Shown here piece after piece: positions 1,809 to 14,781 of a stretch of DNA of 32,000 nucleotides. The stretch's first letter is position 1. The number at the start of each line of letters is the position of its first letter. The position numbers and the translations under genes are program-made. Under the pieces are notes generated by a model, which saw only the letters and a program-made list of their open reading frames with translations, was not told the DNA's origin and did no database searches. Source of the DNA: Candidatus Helarchaeota ASGARD archaeon Hel_GB_B (GTDB lineage: Archaea; Asgardarchaeota; Lokiarchaeia; Helarchaeales; HEL-GB-B); assembly GCA_005191425.1 (NCBI GenBank), contig SUPR01000004.1:1-32000 (forward strand), in the 5' to 3' direction.

Positions 1809-3044
1809 ATGAGTGTTCAACCAATGGAACCATTTTTTAAAGAGATAAAAGAACCTATTGAATTAGCAATGACTGGAAATTATGCTGTTGCAGGTGGAGT
1901 CACCCAGACTGACCCTGATGTTATATGTGCATTTCCAATTACACCCCAAACACAATCAGTAGAAGGGTTATCAGATGTAATTTATAATGGACGTTTAAAA
2001 GCAGCATTTGTTAATGTTGAATCTGAGTTAGCAGCAATGAGTTTTAGTACAGCAGCTTGCGCTTCAGGAGCAAGGACATTTACCGCCACAGCAAGTCAAG
2101 GGTATATGTTAATGATGGAAGCACTACCAATGGCAGTGGGCTGGCGAGTTCCATTAACTATGCTAATCTCAGCTAGGGCATTTAACGCACCCAATCTAAG
2201 CATCTGGAATGCTTGGGAATTCACATTGGCAGATTTGGGTTGGAATACAATTGTCGCAGAAAACGTTCAAGAAACTTATGATAATTCGATAATTTCTGTA
2301 ATGATTGCTGAAAAAACACTTTTTCCTACTATGTTTGTCCACGATGGATTCATTATCTCGCATGCAGTCCATAAATTTATTACATTAGCTGATGAACAAG
2401 TACGAAAATTAACACCTCAATTAAAAAGACATGTAATTACCCCTGAAAAACCTGGCTTATGGGGCTCTCTTGTTACTCCTGAGCAATTAATGGAACAAAG
2501 ATTAGCAATCGACCTTGCAAAAAAAGAAGTACCCCCTAAAATTGATGAAGCTTTTAAGGAATTTGGTAAAGAAACTGGAAGATATTATAATCAAATCGAG
2601 ACAAATAAATGTGATGGCGCAAAAGTCGCAATTATTTCTATGGGGTCAGTTTGCGGTAATATCGCATCATGGCAAGACAAAAACCCAGGAATTGGATTAA
2701 TTAAAATCAGAACATACCGTCCGTTCCCGACATTTCAACTTCGTAAAATTATTGAAGATTGTGGTATAGAAAAAGTCGCAATTATAGAGAAATTTGATGC
2801 TCCGGGTGCACCACTTGCTCAAGTAGGATCTAGCGTTATACCTGCCTTATACCCATTAGGAATACCCATAAAAGATTTTATAGCTGGATACGGTGGCAGA
2901 GATATAACAAAAGACGAATTTGACTTGATTAAAAGAAAAATGGACAAAGTGACTGGTATTCCATCTCAATTTTACGAATATATTGGTGTTAGAGAGTCTA
3001 AAGGAAAATTATGGGATCCAAACCCGATGGAGGTTTCAAAATGA
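1809..3044 (+). CDS. 2-oxoacid:ferredoxin oxidoreductase alpha subunit
   Basis: N-terminus MTGNYAVAGGVTQTDPDVICAFPITPQT matches the PorA/VorA/KorA family pattern (GNxAxAxG...YPITPxT). The 411 aa length is typical and it sits between the gamma/delta and beta genes. Substrate (pyruvate, 2-ketoisovalerate or 2-oxoglutarate) cannot be told from sequence by eye. Confidence 0.85.
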   Translation: MSVQPMEPFFKEIKEPIELAMTGNYAVAGGVTQTDPDVICAFPITPQTQSVEGLSDVIYNGRLKAAFVNVESELAAMSFSTAACASGARTFTATASQGYMLMMEALPMAVGWRVPLTMLISARAFNAPNLSIWNAWEFTLADLGWNTIVAENVQETYDNSIISVMIAEKTLFPTMFVHDGFIISHAVHKFITLADEQVRKLTPQLKRHVITPEKPGLWGSLVTPEQLMEQRLAIDLAKKEVPPKIDEAFKEFGKETGRYYNQIETNKCDGAKVAIISMGSVCGNIASWQDKNPGIGLIKIRTYRPFPTFQLRKIIEDCGIEKVAIIEKFDAPGAPLAQVGSSVIPALYPLGIPIKDFIAGYGGRDITKDEFDLIKRKMDKVTGIPSQFYEYIGVRESKGKLWDPNPMEVSK

Positions 3045-4129
3045 GCGAAAGTAAAAAATCTGAAGTTGTAAAAATAGATGACCTGTTAAAAAAAGACTCA
3101 CATAATTATTTTCTCTATATTAACTATGACAATGAAGCGTTTATGAATACGGGAATTCAAGAATCTGGTTCCACACCCCCATTCGCATCAACGACAACAG
3201 GACCTGGTGGCAAAAAAATTAAGGGAAAAATCGGAATTAAACAAGATATCATCAATTCGCTCGTTTTCTTAGGGTATAAAAGTGGGTTTTTTGCAACTGC
3301 AAATCCAGCATACCCTGTTGATTTAATAGGAAAAGTCGTAGAAGCAATGAAAACTCCGGGCTGTGGCTTTATTCATATAATTTCTCCATGTATGCGTGGA
3401 TGGCGATACCCAGAAAACCAAACTTATACAATATCAAAACTTGCAACAGAATCTGGCTATTTTCCTTTATTTTCTATTCATGTTAAAGATGGAAGACCTA
3501 CATATGCTCTTAATAGGAAAATAAATACAGATAAAGAAAAATTATTCAAATTTATTTCAATGATGGGTAAATATAGACATTTATTTAAACCTGACAAACT
3601 TGATTTCAACCTCGATTCTATTTATAACAGTGTCTTACGACGGAACCAAAACATTCTCGATCTAGTCGATAAATTTAAAGGCAAATCGGAAATTCGGGTA
3701 TATTCAGGAAAATTATCTAGATTTCCAAACCAAGAACATATTTGTGGTGGACATGGATTATGCCTTGGGTGCGGTGAAGGTGAAATTATAAATCAAGTAG
3801 CAATTGCTGCTCAAATGGTCGCTGGAAAAAATGTAATTTATACAAACGCTACTAGTTGTCTAGAAGTTTCAACATCAAAAGACAATTTAGGTTCATGGAA
3901 AGTTCCATGGGTACACCATCTATTTGAAACAGCTGCTACTGTAGCTGATGGGATATCAACTGCTTATAGAATTTTAAAATCAAAAAATAAATATAAAGGA
4001 GACCTTCCATATATAATTGCATTAGGCGGAGACGGTGGCACCTTCGACATCGGTTTTCAATTCTTAAAAAGTGCTCTCGTACGATCTGGAACTTGGGGTA
4101 TAATGAATGATCTTCTTGCTGAAAAATAA
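3041..4129 (+). CDS. 2-oxoacid:ferredoxin oxidoreductase beta (TPP-binding) subunit, apparently circularly permuted
   Basis: The YDNEAFMNTGIQESGSTP...TTTGPGGK...ISPCMRGW...FPLF...GKYRHL block (normally the C-terminal half) comes first. The GHGLCLGCG...TSCLEV...VPWVHHLFETAA...GGDGGTFDIGFQ block (normally the N-terminal half) comes last. I prefer ATG 3041, which has GGAGG 8 nt upstream and an ATGA overlap with the alpha stop, over the track start at 3011. Confidence 0.8.
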   Translation: MSESKKSEVVKIDDLLKKDSHNYFLYINYDNEAFMNTGIQESGSTPPFASTTTGPGGKKIKGKIGIKQDIINSLVFLGYKSGFFATANPAYPVDLIGKVVEAMKTPGCGFIHIISPCMRGWRYPENQTYTISKLATESGYFPLFSIHVKDGRPTYALNRKINTDKEKLFKFISMMGKYRHLFKPDKLDFNLDSIYNSVLRRNQNILDLVDKFKGKSEIRVYSGKLSRFPNQEHICGGHGLCLGCGEGEIINQVAIAAQMVAGKNVIYTNATSCLEVSTSKDNLGSWKVPWVHHLFETAATVADGISTAYRILKSKNKYKGDLPYIIALGGDGGTFDIGFQFLKSALVRSGTWGIMNDLLAEK

Positions 4130-4154: not shown

Positions 4155-4661
4155 TTATGTTAAATTATTTATTATATCATTATATGACATAGTTTTATTA
4201 CAATACATGCATTCTATTTCTAATGGATTTTTTCTCTTTAATTTATAATGTGTTTTTACTGGTTCATTACTGTTTGTGATACAATTTGGGTTTATACATT
4301 TAATATTAACATCAGTTATTTCATCAGGTAGTTCAACTCTTTTTTTACTTACTACATTCATATTTCTTATAATGCTAATAGTGGCTTCAGGTGATATTAA
4401 AGCAATAACATTAATTTCATTCGGGTCTAATTCTCTGTTTTCAATTTTCACAACATCTTTATATCCAGTTTCTAATTTTCCAGAGGGGACATTCATTGCA
4501 ACAGAGATTATATTGCCTTCTTTTCCAGTTATTTTCAATATCCTCAATACATATAGCGCATTTCCCGGATTAATGTGGTCAATAACAGTACCTTCCTTAA
4601 TCTTTCTAATTCTTAAAGATTCCTCTAAATCATTTTGTACCATTTTCAAACTTCCTTTCAT
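4155..4661 (-). CDS. pyrI: aspartate carbamoyltransferase regulatory chain
   Basis: IRKIKEGTVIDHINPGNALYVLRILK matches the PyrI allosteric-domain signature (IKNGTVIDHI). The C-terminal zinc domain has CINPNC...CMYC. An alternative start is the second Met (MVQ...). Confidence 0.8.
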   Translation of the reverse strand: MKGSLKMVQNDLEESLRIRKIKEGTVIDHINPGNALYVLRILKITGKEGNIISVAMNVPSGKLETGYKDVVKIENRELDPNEINVIALISPEATISIIRNMNVVSKKRVELPDEITDVNIKCINPNCITNSNEPVKTHYKLKRKNPLEIECMYCNKTMSYNDIINNLT

Positions 4662-7295: not shown

Positions 7296-7636
7296 TATTG
7301 ATCACTTTTTTACTTAAAATAATATTAGACTTCACAATATAAAAAATTGTAAAATCATGTTTAACCATTAAATTTGATTTTTACTTAATAATTCTATTTT
7401 AATTACAGAATAATAAATTTTTTAAACAATTAATTTCTCGAGATTTTAGAGAATTTATTTCTTAGATTTGTCAATTAAAAACCTAATTTTAATGAATTTT
7501 AATTTAATTCAATTTAATTTAATTTTTTTGATTTAAATTTCAAGAAAATTCGCTGGTTTAATTTATAAATTTGGAATAAACTGAAATGATGTGTTTTTAA
7601 ATAATTAATGTTTCCACAAAATTTAATAATTTAAAC

Positions 7637-7647
7637 AAAAAATAAAA
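7637..7647 (-). terminator. oligo-T archaeal-type terminator after the vhuU-like gene
   Basis: The minus strand reads UUUUUAUUUUUU directly 3' of the structured element at 7648-7718. Confidence 0.4.
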
Positions 7648-7718
7648 ATCGGGTAGCTCTTGCAAGAGCTGGTATCTATTGGCTTAGTTTTCATCCAATA
7701 GAATCATTCCAACCCGAT
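7648..7718 (-). promoter_or_regulatory. structured 3'-UTR element, candidate SECIS
   Basis: Minus-strand RNA: AUCGGGU-UGGAAUGAU-UCUAUUGG(AUGAAAACUAAG)CCAAUAGA-UACC-AGCUCU(UGCA)AGAGCU-ACCCGAU. That gives a 7-bp closing stem, an 8-bp hairpin and a 6-bp hairpin. It starts 19 nt after the stop of a TGA-containing gene and is the only GC-containing structured patch in the spacer. Confidence 0.45.
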
Positions 7719-7736
7719 AATATTTCTGTCAGGAAC

Positions 7737-7883
7737 TTATTCGGTTCCAATCTTGATCTCACGCGAAATAATTTCATTGCCTTCAGAATCTAAAATAGCA
7801 AGATGTGCACTACATGAAAGTCAGTTATCGTAAGATCTTATTACCATCTCAAAGATATTAAGAAATTTTTCATCAATTGGCAT
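7737..7883 (-). CDS. vhuU: small selenopeptide carrying the C-terminal Ni-binding motif of the [NiFeSe] hydrogenase large subunit (VhuU-like); TGA at 7821-7823 read as Sec
   Basis: Absent from the ORF track because of the in-frame TGA. My translation is MPIDEKFLNIFEMVIRSYDN-U-LSCSAHLAILDSEGNEIISREIKIGTE, ending at TAA. RSYDN-U-LSCSAH aligns with the large-subunit motif R.YDPCxxCxxH, with Sec at the first Cys. A GGTGA Shine-Dalgarno lies 7 nt upstream of the ATG. The gene starts 18 nt after the large-subunit stop, in a different frame. Confidence 0.8.
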
Positions 7884-7900
7884 AAATTATCACCTTAAAT

Positions 7901-9211
7901 TTAGGTCGGGATAATAGGATCCGGGATTTTTATTTTTTCTAATATTTTTTCTTCAAATATTTGTTTTGCAAGGGTTTCCATTACTTTTTGTTCTCCGCCA
8001 ACTGAATTATTCGTAGCAACTATCAAATTTGCTTTAGTTATTATTCCTTTTGAATCACTCCAATAATTATGAATGAGTAGTCCACGTGGCGCTTCTACAC
8101 ATCCAACACCCATGCCTTCTCTAGGCTCTACATCTGAAAGTTTTACATCTGTATCACAAATGTCTGGGTCTTCTAAAAGTTCTTTCATTCTTTCTACGGC
8201 TTCGACAAGTTCAACAATTCTTGCCCAATTATTTACAAGTGGCATATGGCAAGGATGACCCACTATCTCTCGTAATTCTTTTAATGCTTTATCAGCAATT
8301 GGTGTCTTCATTTTATCAGCAACATTAAGCATTGGTAAAGGCCCGCCATCCCAAATACCATCTGGATAGCCTACAGGTTTGTAAAATATATGAGTTGCCA
8401 AAGAATATGAAGTTACATATTCTCCTAAAAAGTTCATATATTCTTGAGGCTTTGTATCTTCCACAATTTTTCCTTTTGGATCCATTACACGAATTGTCCC
8501 ATCGTAAATATCATGTACTCCATTATTAGCGATTCCTACATTATATAATTCAGTAACTCCTAACGTCTTGATGACATCAAGATAGTGATTTACGACCGTT
8601 TTAGCAAGGTCAACAGTCCAGAGAGTAAGTTCTACCAATCTATCCATCTTTTTAAGATATCTATCTCGGATTTCTTCTGGTAATGGACGAGCTACTCCAC
8701 CTGGTAAAGAATTCATTGGATGAATAGCTTTACCTGCATAATCCTTAATAAAAAGCTGCGCAATCTTCATAATTTCAAGGGCATTCAAGCCCCATTCTGG
8801 TTTCTTTTTAATAATCCCAACGACATTTCTAATTGCTGGGTCTGCAGTTGGCCCAAATATTAAATCAGGCGCCGCAAGAGCAAAAAAGTGGAGCGCATGA
8901 CTGGAAATTTGTTTGGCGTTAATCATAAGTCTCCTTAATTTTTCAGCAGTTTTTGGTATTTTAAGACCCCATGCATCATCTACAGCTTTACTTGAAGCTA
9001 AATGATGTGGAACGGGACAAATACCGCAAATTCTGGGTGTAATACGAGGGGCTTGTTCCATTGGACGTCCTTCAAGGAATTTTTCAAAAAATCTGGTGGA
9101 AGTAATACTAAACATTACCTTGTCGACTTTTTCATCGTCCGTAAGTTTAATTGTTAATTTCCCATGTCCTTCAAGGCGTGTTAGGGGTTCAATATCTATT
9201 ACTTTACCCAT
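7901..9211 (-). CDS. [NiFe(Se)] hydrogenase large subunit, group 3 (HoxH/Mvh-Vhu-like), lacking the C-terminal metal-binding motif
   Basis: IEPLTRLEGHGKL and the N-terminal Ni-binding motif PRICGICPVPH are present. FEKFLEGRPM...KLRRLM...SHALHFF closely resembles bidirectional group 3 large subunits as I remember them. The ORF ends ...KIPDPIIPT without DPCxxCxxH. An AAGGTGG Shine-Dalgarno lies upstream. Confidence 0.85.
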   Translation of the reverse strand: MGKVIDIEPLTRLEGHGKLTIKLTDDEKVDKVMFSITSTRFFEKFLEGRPMEQAPRITPRICGICPVPHHLASSKAVDDAWGLKIPKTAEKLRRLMINAKQISSHALHFFALAAPDLIFGPTADPAIRNVVGIIKKKPEWGLNALEIMKIAQLFIKDYAGKAIHPMNSLPGGVARPLPEEIRDRYLKKMDRLVELTLWTVDLAKTVVNHYLDVIKTLGVTELYNVGIANNGVHDIYDGTIRVMDPKGKIVEDTKPQEYMNFLGEYVTSYSLATHIFYKPVGYPDGIWDGGPLPMLNVADKMKTPIADKALKELREIVGHPCHMPLVNNWARIVELVEAVERMKELLEDPDICDTDVKLSDVEPREGMGVGCVEAPRGLLIHNYWSDSKGIITKANLIVATNNSVGGEQKVMETLAKQIFEEKILEKIKIPDPIIPT

Positions 9212-10188
9212 AAAAAACCACCTTTTCCAATCTTTTTCATAAGAATGGTAAAAGATTTTATTAAATTATAAAAGACCTATATTATATCATTTATGTCTTT
9301 TTTGTTGTGAAATTCAATTATTTTTTTGAATATATTTCCAGCGAGACCGATATTGATTTTTTTTACTTTTAGGGAAATTCTGATTTCATTGTAAATTTTG
9401 AAATACTTGCATATCAATAATTTTAGATCTTCTATAATTTATTTAGTATTTATGTCTATAATTCCAAAAATCTATTTAAAATATTTTCTATTTTTTTTAA
9501 AAATGAGATAAAGCTCATTATTTTTTTACAAAAACATACTTTTTTGGAAATAGTACAATCTGAAATAATCATAATATTAAAATTAGTAAATTAAAGAATT
9601 AGAAATAATTTATAAATTCTTTAAATTAGTTTAAAATCATTTTATTTGGTCGTATTTTATTAAAAGATTTTATTTATAATAAGCGATTTGGAGATATATT
9701 AAGACATAAATAAAAATACCAGAAGTTTAGTTAATCTCAGTAAAATAATCATAGTAGAATTTGGACACTATTCAAATTCAAAATATAAAATATAAAATCA
9801 TATGGAATATTTAAATTAAAAACAAAAAGATAATAATATATTGAAAATAGTAATTAATCATGGTTAATATTGAATAATCTAATATAGATTAAAATAGATG
9901 AAATAAAAGGACATCTATAAATTAGAAATAAATTAATTTATAACTCATTTTTTTATTGAAATTTAAATGATAATTTTGTAAAAATTTATTCTATTCTGTA
10001 TATGGTTTTTAAAATATAGTTAAGATCAAAAAATGGAATCAAATACTTAAAAAAGATATCGAATAAATTAAAAATATAAACAAATAAATATTGGTAATGA
10101 AATAATTTATAAAATAAAAATGGAAAATTCAAACAGAAAAAAATATTTGTGTAAAATATTATAAATTACTAAAAAATGTCGAGGTAAA

Positions 10189-12565: not shown

Positions 12566-13219
12566 TTATGTAAAATTGAAATTTAATGATATAAGATATG
12601 ATAATGCAAGTGATTTATTACAATTTGTAAATTTATAGAGAGCGTCTAAATCGTCTTTATAATCTATATCCAATCCAATTCTGAATGAATTAAAAATTTT
12701 TACTTTAAATTTGTTTTTAAATTCTGAAATATGTTTTCTGAAGCTATCATTACCGTAAAAAGTTTTAATTTTTAAATCTGCATCGAAAAGAAGTGAATTT
12801 GTGCCGTCATTTCGGTTTGATGGTACAATAATTATTTGGGCATTAGTCTTTTTTTTTGTTTCAAGCATGTTTTCGATATCTTGTTTATCAATGAGTGGAA
12901 CATCTGAAGGTAAAATTAAAAAATAACTTGCATTAAATCGTTTACAATAATTTATTGCATTATCCAGAGCTATATTAATTGATGGAGCCGAATCAACTAA
13001 AATTTTTATTTTTTGGTCTTTAAATCTCAAAATGTTATCTGACGGAGTTGTTATAACTATTTTTATAATTGATGGTATTTGTTTTAAGGTAAATAGAACA
13101 TCTTGGAGCATTAAATAAGCAAATTTTTGTCTCTCACTGTCGGATAAAATATGGGCAAGTCTCAATTTTGAGTAATGAAAATTTTTAACTGGAATAATTG
13201 CAATTATTCTATCAGACAT
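12566..13219 (-). CDS. cofC: 2-phospho-L-lactate (or PEP) guanylyltransferase, F420 biosynthesis
   Basis: IAIIPVKNFHYSKLRL...MLQDVL...ILPSDVPLI...NDGTNSL matches the CofC/FbiD pattern (PVK..SKSRL, DLP, DGGTN). It lies adjacent to cofD. Confidence 0.8.
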   Translation of the reverse strand: MSDRIIAIIPVKNFHYSKLRLAHILSDSERQKFAYLMLQDVLFTLKQIPSIIKIVITTPSDNILRFKDQKIKILVDSAPSINIALDNAINYCKRFNASYFLILPSDVPLIDKQDIENMLETKKKTNAQIIIVPSNRNDGTNSLLFDADLKIKTFYGNDSFRKHISEFKNKFKVKIFNSFRIGLDIDYKDDLDALYKFTNCNKSLALSYLISLNFNFT

Positions 13220-13234
13220 TTTTATATCAACATA

Positions 13235-14161
13235 TTATTTATCAAGGAGTTTATTTAATGCATATCTTGCCAAATTGACTTTTTTTTGGGTGGAATCCAT
13301 AATGGTATCAAAATGATAGACATTAATTCCTAATTTTTTAATTTTTTCAAGATATTTTATATCTATATCATCAATTATAAGTGATTTTATAAAAGATTGA
13401 TAAATCTTAGCTACTCCAAGTGCTGAAACTTCATATCCAAGTCCCAGCATTAATTTATCAGCAGGTCCTTTAATAGGTTTGTCTCCAACAATTGGGCTAA
13501 TTGCAATGGAATTCTTTTTCTTAATAGTTTCTTTTATTCCTTTGATTTTTATTATGGGACCTATACTTACAATCGGATTACTTGGGCATATAATAATTCC
13601 ATCTGCATTTTCTAATGATTCAATTACACGAGGAGCTGGTTCAGCTTTTTCAATATTCTTATAAATTACATCATCTACTTTATCCGATGCATGGTATTTT
13701 ATAAGATATTCTTCAAAATGAAAAGTCCCTCTTGGTGTTTTTATAAATGTAGGTGTATATGTATTTGTCATAGGTATTATTTTTGCTTTAATTGATAATT
13801 TTCTACTTAAAGTCTCGGTAATTTTATCAAGATTATACCCCTGTCTATAAAGCCAAGTTCTATATATATGAGTTGCCAGATCTTTATCCCCTAATTGAAA
13901 CCAAGTTTCTAATCCATATATACCAAGCATTTCTAAGCAATTAAAAGTATCATTAGCGACACCCCAACCTTTACTAGTATCGACCATATTAGCTAATGTA
14001 TACATGATTATATCTATATCTGGGCTAATGTATAACCCTTGAAAATCGATTCTATCATCTCCTGTATTTACTATAATTGTTAAATTTTCATTTGGCATTA
14101 TATTTGCCAATCCCAATATTAATTTTGCAGCTCCGACACCACCTGCCAATACGGTTATCAA
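13235..14161 (-). CDS. cofD: LPPG:FO 2-phospho-L-lactate transferase, F420 biosynthesis
   Basis: N-terminus ITVLAGGVGAAKLILGL and a 308 aa length match the CofD family. TTG start forms a TTGA overlap with the upstream gene's stop. Confidence 0.85.
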   Translation of the reverse strand: MITVLAGGVGAAKLILGLANIMPNENLTIIVNTGDDRIDFQGLYISPDIDIIMYTLANMVDTSKGWGVANDTFNCLEMLGIYGLETWFQLGDKDLATHIYRTWLYRQGYNLDKITETLSRKLSIKAKIIPMTNTYTPTFIKTPRGTFHFEEYLIKYHASDKVDDVIYKNIEKAEPAPRVIESLENADGIIICPSNPIVSIGPIIKIKGIKETIKKKNSIAISPIVGDKPIKGPADKLMLGLGYEVSALGVAKIYQSFIKSLIIDDIDIKYLEKIKKLGINVYHFDTIMDSTQKKVNLARYALNKLLDK

Positions 14162-14781
14162 AATTTTTCACCCCACTTATTCAAGAAACAAATATCATTT
14201 AATTTTAACCTGGGAGGTGGACTTGGTATATTTTCTGTCAATGTATATCCAATTGTTATAAAGGCTTGTGGTTCAATATCTTCTGGAATGTTTAGCACCT
14301 TTTTTACGATTTCTTGAGCAAATAATGGCGCACAATACCAGCATGCTCCAAGACATTCGTTATGAGCTGCTAATAACATATTTTGTATCGCAGCACTAAC
14401 ACTCTGAACTCCCATCTGGTGTTCGATAATCTGTCTTTTCTCATCTGAATATTTTTCCATTCGTTTCATATCAAGACAAGGTACTATCAATACTGGTGCA
14501 GTTGAAAATGTTATAATTGATTTGTTTATAATTTTCTGTATCTGTTCAGTTTTATATCCGTCTTTTTTTAGATCATTTTTATATTTATTTGCCATTTTTA
14601 TAGCAAGCTCTTTTTTTATAATTTTATCCTTCACGATTAAAAAATACCATGGGTTAGAATTGTGAGCTGAAGGCGCCATAATTGCTAATTGAAGTATATT
14701 TTTTATTTTGTCATCTTCAACTTCTTTATTTTTATATTTTCTAATACTTCTTCGTGTTTTAAGTCCATCAATTAATTTCAT
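14158..14781 (-). CDS. nitroreductase-family flavoprotein (FbiB C-terminal-domain-like)
   Basis: TRRSIRKYKNKEV...AIMAPSAHNSNPWYFLIV is the nitroreductase-fold signature. The gene is translationally coupled to cofD. Confidence 0.75.
   Translation of the reverse strand: MKLIDGLKTRRSIRKYKNKEVEDDKIKNILQLAIMAPSAHNSNPWYFLIVKDKIIKKELAIKMANKYKNDLKKDGYKTEQIQKIINKSIITFSTAPVLIVPCLDMKRMEKYSDEKRQIIEHQMGVQSVSAAIQNMLLAAHNECLGACWYCAPLFAQEIVKKVLNIPEDIEPQAFITIGYTLTENIPSPPPRLKLNDICFLNKWGEKF

Follow-up and report, generated by a model that had tools for sequence, protein, structure and literature searches.

A VhuA/VhuU-type split [NiFeSe] hydrogenase large subunit with a predicted selenocysteine codon in a Helarchaeota contig

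Is a [NiFe] hydrogenase large subunit that ends before its C-terminal metal-binding motif a broken protein, or is the missing part encoded elsewhere? This question is raised by a locus of Candidatus Helarchaeota archaeon Hel_GB_B, located on the minus strand at positions 7737–9211 of the window, the stretch of 32,000 nt (positions 1–32,000 of contig SUPR01000004.1, assembly GCA_005191425.1) analysed here. An earlier note, made from the letters of the DNA, proposed that the C-terminal Ni ligands are supplied by a separate 48-codon open reading frame (ORF) in which an in-frame TGA encodes selenocysteine (Sec). The large subunit was regarded as HoxH-like or group 3b/3d-like, and its split as an independent or unusual occurrence. 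A Sec-containing VhuU encoded beside VhuA has been known for decades in Methanococcus, in the F420-non-reducing [NiFeSe] hydrogenase of group 3c. From the sequence comparisons described below, we consider with high confidence that the Helarchaeota locus is the vhuA–vhuU pair of such a group 3c hydrogenase, in which Sec would be inserted at the UGA by way of a Sec insertion sequence (SECIS) in the 3′-untranslated region (3′-UTR).

The separate C-terminal gene and its UGA codon

The anatomy of the locus can be observed directly (Table 1). The vhuA ORF closes with TAA, and neither DPCxxCxxH nor Dx[C/U]xxCxxH occurs anywhere in its 436 amino acids; this is the split that the earlier note had described. 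The N-terminal motif PRICGICPVPH is present at residues 59–69, and C62, G63, I64, C65, P66 and H69 are invariant in an alignment of 14 sequences. The small gene vhuU starts in a different frame from vhuA after a spacer of 17 nt, one fewer than previously counted, while the GGTGA site and the change of frame are as described. It reads MPIDEKFLNIFEMVIRSYDN-TGA-LSCSAH-LAILDSEGNEIISREIKIGTE-TAA, with the local context SYDN-UGA-LSCSAH, and the frame upstream of its ATG is closed by a stop immediately before the codon preceding the ATG. In relatives, the Shine–Dalgarno-like site is found at the same place, with AAGGTGAT kept in L001 and GGTGGAGGA in L002. The 17-nt distance and the ribosome-binding site of vhuU itself suggest that both genes are probably co-transcribed. 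The gene calls in four public records of the contig leave a 605-nt gap holding vhuU empty, so the small gene is indeed overlooked by ORF callers.

We compared the concatenated VhuA and VhuU, with U written as C, with all PDB chains. Residues 5–472 align in a single stretch to the fused MvhA (5odc, chain F), and sydnClsCsaH is placed on aydpClsCatH. Both metal-binding motifs of group 3c large subunits (RxCGxCxxxH and Dx[C/U]xxCxxH) are present, as RICGICPVPH in VhuA and DN-U-LSCSAH in VhuU, and both align to the motifs of MvhA; the residue following the motif Asp is Asn, where Pro is usual. The 48-residue peptide alone (U as C) matches the NCBIfam VhuU model NF041786 with an E value of 2e-15 (56.3 bits), much better than expected by chance, its residues 1–40 corresponding to model positions 1–40. 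VhuU residues 3–28 also align to residues 2–27 of M. maripaludis VhuU (9sfi, chain M), where the Sec position is matched to X (Sec). In these alignments, the separate ORF supplies the C-terminal Ni ligands, and its TGA faces both the Cys of the MvhA motif DPCLSCATH and the Sec of M. maripaludis VhuU, as had been expected from the letters.

The C-terminal extension of 21 residues also has the features of a cleavable tail that were recognized earlier. The pattern [LIV][IV][IV][LV]D.EG.E is kept in ~59 VhuU orthologs, and the extension resembles the FrhA tail HVMVVDDEDKSVIKNEM (3zfs, chain A). Maturation of [NiFe] hydrogenases in general involves cleavage after the motif His by a specific endopeptidase, and in 9sfi, the chain of M. 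maripaludis VhuU comprises no more than 27 amino acids. By analogy with both, the Helarchaeota VhuU is most likely cleaved after His27.

To follow the UGA across relatives, we located vhuU by translating the sequence 3′ of vhuA with TGA shown as U. A scan of genome contigs with the single protein found only two true relatives; 80 loci were returned from metagenome contigs, a number that was reached only by scanning with the 14-sequence alignment. The loci are given L numbers (L001, L002 and so on), and L004–L008 are five fetched copies of the window contig. In ~60 of the 80 metagenomic loci, vhuU is found 3′ of vhuA. All fetched loci together, the 80 metagenomic ones and the genome loci, give 59 distinct VhuU peptides; an in-frame TGA occupies the Sec position in 58, TGG in one and a Cys codon in none. 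The sequence on both sides of the TGA was compared between the window and its 82–86% identical relatives. After the TGA, replacement differences are low (pN 0.11–0.20) and synonymous differences are saturated (pS 0.69–0.96), with the same pattern before it. Conservation in frame after the TGA, which had been suggested as a check, is therefore found, and these comparisons indicate that purifying selection on the codons following the UGA is equal to that on the codons preceding it.

The alternative that survives best is a reading of the UGA other than as Sec: it would act as a stop to give a 20-residue peptide, or be read as Cys or Trp through near-cognate suppression or a changed code. We regard this as very unlikely. 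Two of the four Ni–Fe ligands would be lost on termination, which is at odds with the selection seen on the frame downstream. TGA is the ordinary stop of 9 of the 32 ORFs in the window; the genetic code is thus standard and recoding must be local. The lack of a Cys codon in any relative argues that selection maintains Sec itself, and a conserved, covarying SECIS is located downstream in every lineage. Two observations would fit a non-Sec reading, namely the non-canonical UA in the SECIS core of the window and the TGG (Trp) at the Sec position of one relative. In this relative (L052, vhuU at ~4315–4455), CGC TGG (Arg-Trp) replaces TGC TGA (Cys-Sec), and the remaining peptide and the SECIS are kept; the possible explanations are decay of this copy, an error in sequencing or a true change from Sec to Trp.

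Even less probable is a decaying pseudogene, that is, a once-fused large-subunit gene disrupted by a stop, a frameshift and a nonsense TGA. Such decay could be suspected from the orphan position of the locus, which is without vhuD and vhuG, and possibly from the TGG for TGA and CGC for TGC of L052. However, the same architecture recurs in ~60 loci at 54–86% identity. The identical VhuA protein is present on 12 contigs, and the five fetched copies (L004–L008) have identical vhuU and 3′-UTR sequences. Neither the SECIS nor any of the four metal-ligand positions is damaged, the RNA structure shows compensatory changes, and saturated synonymous change is combined with low replacement change on both sides of the TGA. 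Neither dN/dS near 1 nor frame-breaking indels were found among close relatives.

Class of the large subunit and comparison with known systems

The top PDB match of the concatenated protein is the 418-residue VhuA of M. maripaludis (9sfi, chain g; E 1.9e-129, 435.6 bits), a component of the solved Hdr–Vhu–Fwd complex (PMC13518236). The fused MvhA proteins also score highly (5odc, chain F, 3.9e-121, 408.2 bits; 9sw2, chain F, 351.6 bits). HoxH of group 3d (5xf9, chain D) aligns over its full length with an E value of 1.2e-79 (271.4 bits). Lower scores are obtained for several chains of FrhA, group 3a (E 4e-38, ~134 bits), several chains of the sulfhydrogenases, group 3b (E ~2e-33, ~119 bits), and hydrogenases of groups 1 and 2 (at most 108 bits). 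Similarly, NCBIfam ranks VhuA (NF041785) first for the large subunit, with 484.8 bits over model positions 1–417 of 418. By sequence, the large subunit is thus assigned to group 3c (Mvh/Vhu) and not to group 3b or 3d. VhuA/VhuU was the right analogy, and the HoxH-like or group 3b/3d-like class has to be given up; with it falls the reason for calling the split independent.

The split itself is conserved. The best 120 database homologs of VhuA are all 435–442 amino acids long, which is the split form, and carry Thor-, Jord-, Frey-, Njord- and Helarchaeota labels; the form is universal among hundreds of Asgard homologs. The N-termini of VhuU in the window and in M. maripaludis fall at the same place, so both splits are homologous and did not arise independently. 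A convergent origin, in which a HoxH-like or group 3b/3d large subunit was split independently of VhuA/VhuU, is therefore highly improbable: a family named 'HoxH' (PF27537) is among the precomputed Pfam labels and HoxH aligns over the full length, but VhuA and MvhA outscore HoxH by ~140–165 bits and group 3b by ~290–320 bits, and relatives lie in vhuD(FlpD)–vhuG–vhuA operons, the layout of group 3c.

Nor is the occurrence unusual in Asgard archaea, judging from two publications. Sec-VhuU with a eukaryote-like SECIS was reported for Lokiarchaeota (Mariotti et al., 2016; PMC4989117). A later catalogue lists Sec-VhuU for 68.3% of the Asgard archaea that use Sec, Lokiarchaeia/Helarchaeales included, and the Sec trait was given for 85.9% of Lokiarchaeia/Helarchaeales genomes (Huang et al., 2024; PMC11227280).

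We compared the vhuAU pair with each of the known systems. First, the Methanococcus VhuA/VhuU is the best-scoring solved relative and shares the split large subunit, the start residue of VhuU, a (here predicted) Sec as the first C-terminal ligand and a small subunit with a tail after the His. Compared with the methanogen VhuA (418 residues), VhuA of the window keeps ~17 extra C-terminal linker residues (420–436), as the fused MvhA does, and D-N-U is found in place of the methanogen D-P-U. The SECIS also differs, being of the eukaryote-like AUGA kink-turn type and not of the methanococcal GAA_A type (PMC11227280). In contrast to the Methanococcus locus, no vhuD, vhuG or vhuB adjoins the vhuAU pair of the window. 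Second, the Asgard Sec-VhuU proteins belong to the same family, superphylum and clade (Lokiarchaeia/Helarchaeales) and, like the predicted protein of the window, are ~50 residues long with one Sec. Of the 59 variants, 55 have Cys in front of Sec (D-C-U) and three have Asn (D-N-U), namely the window and its two closest relatives; the remaining variant reads D-R-W. Third, the fused MvhA of Methanothermococcus and Methanothermobacter (5odc, 9sw2) is collinear over VhuA plus VhuU with all ligand motifs matched, but it is a single polypeptide with Cys in place of Sec, and no SECIS is required. Finally, HoxH (5xf9) is homologous over its full length; however, it is a fused, Cys-containing protein whose gene lies in a diaphorase operon, features that the locus does not show, and its score is clearly under those of the group 3c proteins.

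The SECIS-like element downstream of vhuU

The 3′-UTR of vhuU forms a stable structure with a minimum free energy (MFE) of −28.8 kcal/mol and a z-score of −4.0; none of 200 shuffled sequences is equally stable. Applied to four sequences, those of the window, of two close relatives and of a more distant one, RNAalifold gives the same three-way junction, in which 8 of the 23 pairs are compensatory. With a covariance model of these sequences, a single match per locus is obtained in 38 diverse loci, always just 3′ of vhuU. In the resulting 38-locus alignment, which is fitted to the model, 89.2% of the cells are paired, 21 of the 23 pairs are changed on both sides, and so are all nine upper-stem pairs; the covariation score is 0.684, compared with 0.215 for shuffled alignments, and with slid partners it does not exceed 0.132. 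An unfitted alignment of 15 diverse elements with MAFFT and RNAalifold also recovers the upper stem, with all eight pairs compensatory. The outer helix P1 and the hairpin P3 are not recovered in it, so these helices rest on the model-fitted and four-sequence alignments and on single-sequence folds. Single-sequence MFE folds show the outer helix and upper stem architecture in 51 of 56 distinct elements. A broader covariance model from the 38 hits scores 70.1 bits at the element and 10.5 bits at the next best place in the window with filters off; as its sole match lies here, no second selenoprotein gene of that type is seen in the window.

The element was compared with the two related SECIS types. 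It resembles the Asgard lokiSECIS and eSECIS-like elements (PMC4989117; PMC11227280) in its AUGA, a stem of 8–9 bp, an A-rich loop (11–12 nt) with a terminal G, and a lower stem of the UGG_CCA type as in frhA and vhuU; its 8-bp upper stem falls within the 7–15 bp expected of this class. It differs from them in its 3′ core, which is UA instead of GA or AA, in its detachment from the stop codon and in the absence of vhuD–vhuG upstream. The 3′-UTR location, the AUGA 5′ core, the helices flanking the core and the A-rich apical loop are shared with the eukaryotic SECIS, whereas the upper helix is much shorter, the extra P3 and the outer P1 form a three-way junction, and the 3′ core is UA.

The detachment can be seen by comparing stop codons. 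In most lineages, the stop codon of vhuU is the UGA of the SECIS AUGA, and the 5′ strand of P1 is formed by the last vhuU codons. This coincidence was noted for one Loki gene by Mariotti et al. (PMC4989117). The SECIS is wholly non-coding in the window, L001, L009 and L045, where vhuU has already ended with a TAA; in the window, this stop lies 32 nt upstream of the AUGA. The window segment of P1 and core at 7704–7718 (ATC GGG TTG GAA TGA, IGLE-stop) resembles the end of vhuU at 7737–7751 (ATT GGA ACC GAA TAA, IGTE-stop), 30 nt upstream, and similar relics are found in L001 (VGLE-stop), L009 (FGME-stop) and L045 (PGLG-stop). This likeness is suggestive of a small duplication that moved the SECIS away from the ORF. 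We also considered whether translation could pass the TAA and reach the relic IGLE-UGA located 30 nt further on; this was rejected, as the relic is in frame in the window and out of frame in L001. A bacterial-type SECIS right after the UGA was also rejected, as only a 4-bp AUGU/ACAU pairing was found by eye and the organism is archaeal.

Other forms of the element were observed in relatives. In two Thorarchaeota-like loci, L021 (4495–4580, 5320–5405 and 5886–5970) and L015 (4493–4578 and 6656–6740), the SECIS module is repeated two to three times downstream of vhuU with 38.8–44.2 bits. A repeat of the final ~10 vhuU codons (...ELVRKELVTGGG-UGA) stands ahead of every module; the tail-plus-SECIS unit seems to have been duplicated repeatedly. 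In the Jord/Freya form, UUGA replaces AUGA and a mini-stem is present in the apical loop, like that of type II SECIS.

The U of the 3′ core is the same in L004–L008, so the UA is not an assembly error. L056, the only other locus tallied with 'TA', reads AA after a shifted alignment is corrected. Natural kink-turns with a non-G at that position exist, as in ribosomal Kt-23, so it is plausible that the SECIS functions despite its UA core. Taking these features together, we tentatively raise the possibility that the Sec signal of Asgard vhuU is a conserved three-way junction of P1, a kink-turn hairpin and a short G+C-rich P3, not a simple AUGA hairpin, with the window version detached and carrying U at the kink-turn position. 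The P1/P3 junction is not mentioned in the text of PMC4989117 and PMC11227280. What may be new here is small and on the RNA side: the conserved P1/P3 junction, the UA core and the detached SECIS.

The proposed mechanism follows the Methanococcus enzyme and [NiFe] hydrogenase maturation in general, on which the predictions of Sec insertion, processing, complex composition and physiological role are modelled. Most of the large subunit, with the N-terminal ligands Cys62 and Cys65, would come from VhuA. A ribosome on vhuU would meet the UGA at codon 21, and the kink-turn SECIS-like element ~114 nt downstream would recruit the archaeal Sec-specific elongation factor with Sec-tRNASec. Sec would then be inserted at codon 21 and translation continue to the TAA. 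VhuU would join VhuA, donating Sec21 and Cys24 to the Ni–Fe site, and the 21 residues after His27 would most likely be cut off by the maturation endopeptidase, so that a peptide of ~27 residues would stay bound to VhuA, as it does in Methanococcus. Genes for the small subunit (VhuG) and for the electron-transfer partners would have to lie outside the window.

Several results weigh against this vhuA–vhuU reading. First, both proteins miss the curated NCBIfam equivalog cut-offs, with 484.8 bits against 800 for VhuA and 56.3 bits against 70 for VhuU. This marks them as diverged relatives of the proteins from methanogens, as opposed to near-identical orthologs; since both models are matched end to end, the shortfall reflects this divergence and not missing parts, and the cut-offs appear to be tuned to methanogen sequences. 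Second, ARAGORN finds neither tRNA-Sec nor any other tRNA in the 32-kb window, and no Sec-machinery genes are present in it. Third, no FlpD, Oxidored_q6 or Hdr domains, and none of the usual operon partners vhuD and vhuG, were found among the window ORFs scanned. Fourth, Rfam gives no SECIS, tRNA-Sec or other RNA family in the whole window at gathering thresholds or in 7400–8000 at E up to 10. In this 601-nt region, the eukaryotic SECIS model has no match even at that limit, and only chance snoRNA and RNA-OUT matches with E above 2 appear. Finally, the 3′ core is GA in 29 and AA in 7 of the 38 aligned relatives, against UA in the window. The published PatScan patterns for Asgard SECIS require [G/A]A at this site (Huang et al., 2024; PMC11227280), so the SECIS of the window vhuU would escape them.

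Table 1. Features of the vhuA–vhuU locus (window coordinates)
Feature	Position	Strand	Basis and remarks
vhuA, group 3c [NiFe(Se)] hydrogenase large subunit	7901..9211	minus	436 aa, without C-terminal metal-binding motif; ORF translation and PDB/NCBIfam matches
N-terminal Ni/Fe-binding motif RICGICPVPH	9005..9034	minus	Residues 60–69, Cys62 and Cys65; translation
GGTGA Shine–Dalgarno-like site	7890..7894	minus	6 nt upstream of vhuU ATG; read from sequence, putative function
vhuU, 48-codon predicted selenoprotein gene including Sec21	7737..7883	minus	ATG 7883-7881, TGA 7823-7821, Cys codon 7814-7812, His codon 7805-7803, TAA 7739-7737; translation, NCBIfam VhuU match, orthologs
UGA read as Sec (Sec21), putative	7821..7823	minus	First ligand position of D-x-[C/U]-x-x-C-x-x-H; aligned to MvhA Cys and 9sfi_M X
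Cys24-Ser-Ala-His27	7803..7814	minus	Second C-terminal metal ligand and His marking expected cleavage; alignment to xxCxxH
21-aa C-terminal extension LAILDSEGNEIISREIKIGTE	7740..7802	minus	Presumably removed by maturation endopeptidase; conserved pattern in orthologs
3′-UTR SECIS module, three-way junction	7648..7718	minus	Fold, covariation, covariance-model hit
SECIS P1 outer helix	7718-7712 with 7654-7648	minus	AUCGGGU/ACCCGAU
SECIS lower stem UGG/CCA, 3 bp	7711-7709 with 7672-7670	minus	Fold
SECIS AUGA core	7707-7704	minus	Within unpaired AAUGA
SECIS upper stem, 8 bp	7702-7695 with 7682-7675	minus	Fold
SECIS apical loop AUGAAAACUAAG, 12 nt	7694-7683	minus	A-rich, ending AAG; fold
SECIS 3′ core dinucleotide UA	7674-7673	minus	Directly after upper stem
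SECIS hairpin P3	7670-7655	minus	(AG)CUCU-UGCA-AGAG(CU); fold
U-run UUUUUAUUUUUU, likely archaeal transcription stop	7637..7648	minus	Directly after P1; read from sequence, putative function

Locus neighbourhood and implications

The exact VhuA sequence and two proteins encoded near it carry Candidatus Helarchaeota labels in NCBI. The window has a G+C content of 28%, and domain scans of its ORFs reveal archaeal housekeeping genes: a proteasome/exosome cluster, RNase P subunits, L15e, AlaRS, POR, and cofC and cofD of F420 biosynthesis. In Thor- and Freyarchaeial relatives, FlpD (vhuD) and Oxidored_q6 (vhuG) directly precede vhuA. The 86%-identical Helarchaeota relative L090 has the order vhuA, vhuU, hdrC-like and hdrB-like, whereas the window is without these hdr genes. 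Between vhuA and the divergent gene of a tetratricopeptide-repeat protein, the window has an ORF-free gap of 977 nt (9212–10188) with 17% G+C, and a comparable gap of ~885 nt is located upstream of vhuA in L090. The gap is unusually long for an archaeal genome and could hold a promoter region, a non-coding RNA or the remnant of lost vhuD/vhuG. A TGA-interrupted vhuD/vhuG hidden in it was rejected, given stops throughout all six frames and the low G+C content. Helarchaeota small-subunit sequences of the FrhG type are listed in the supplements of PMC11227280, which makes it plausible that the partner is encoded elsewhere. The orphan vhuAU pair could have a different partner set in this clade.

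The arrangement of vhuU varies among relatives. In the Lokiarchaeia-like L048 (4361–5990), and also in L054, L065 and L073 as well as L063, L079 and L087, vhuA is followed by hdrC-like and hdrB-like genes and then by vhuU with its SECIS, so that two genes and ~1.5 kb separate both parts of the large subunit. In seven further loci (L016, L017, L030, L042, L046, L064 and L088), vhuA has the split length (~434–438 residues), with no vhuU or SECIS match within the fetched flank; one of them is a Thorarchaeota gene annotated 'vhu subunit A' in a vhuD–vhuG–vhuA operon. VhuU of these loci must be encoded elsewhere or be absent. A vhuU with an in-frame TGA and a SECIS match is also found in L002, L010, L018 (Jordarchaeia-like), L089 (the complete genome of Freyarchaeum deiterrae) and L044, the contig of a Njordarchaeota-labelled protein. 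Huang et al. (2024; PMC11227280) state that clades outside four subdivisions 'appear to lack Sec usage'; with these Jord-, Freya- and Njord-labelled loci, the reported distribution of Sec in Asgard archaea may need to be extended.

Two further observations concern neighbouring genes. The cofC, cofD and nitroreductase-family genes at 12566–14781, an F420 biosynthesis context, lie ~3.4 kb from vhuAU in a block that is syntenic in L090; the hydrogenase adjoining this block is of the F420-non-reducing type. At 3011–4129, a 372-residue ORF follows POR gamma/delta-like and POR alpha-like genes, overlapping the preceding ORF by 34 nt. It has no Pfam match at E up to 1e-4, and its position suggests the POR beta (thiamine pyrophosphate-binding) subunit.

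In summary, the locus is an unannotated, ordinary member of the VhuA/VhuU family already known from methanogens and Asgard archaea, and not a new kind of split. As the split Sec-VhuU has been in the Asgard literature since 2016, knowledge of [NiFeSe] hydrogenases and of Sec decoding is unchanged. For the organism, a hydrogenase that automatic gene calling makes look truncated and without catalytic function is predicted to be complete, and metabolic reconstructions of Helarchaeota, including H2 cycling and syntrophy, should therefore count it. The vhuU case also illustrates how Sec-containing mini-ORFs are systematically missed by annotation. The UA core, the detached SECIS and the conserved P1 and P3 helices offer modest, testable clues to the requirements of an archaeal kink-turn SECIS. 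Provided that P1 and P3 act as functional determinants and that the UA core is active, SBP2-independent SECIS recognition at the archaeal–eukaryotic transition would follow wider rules, and some genes would be missed in pattern-based selenoproteome surveys.

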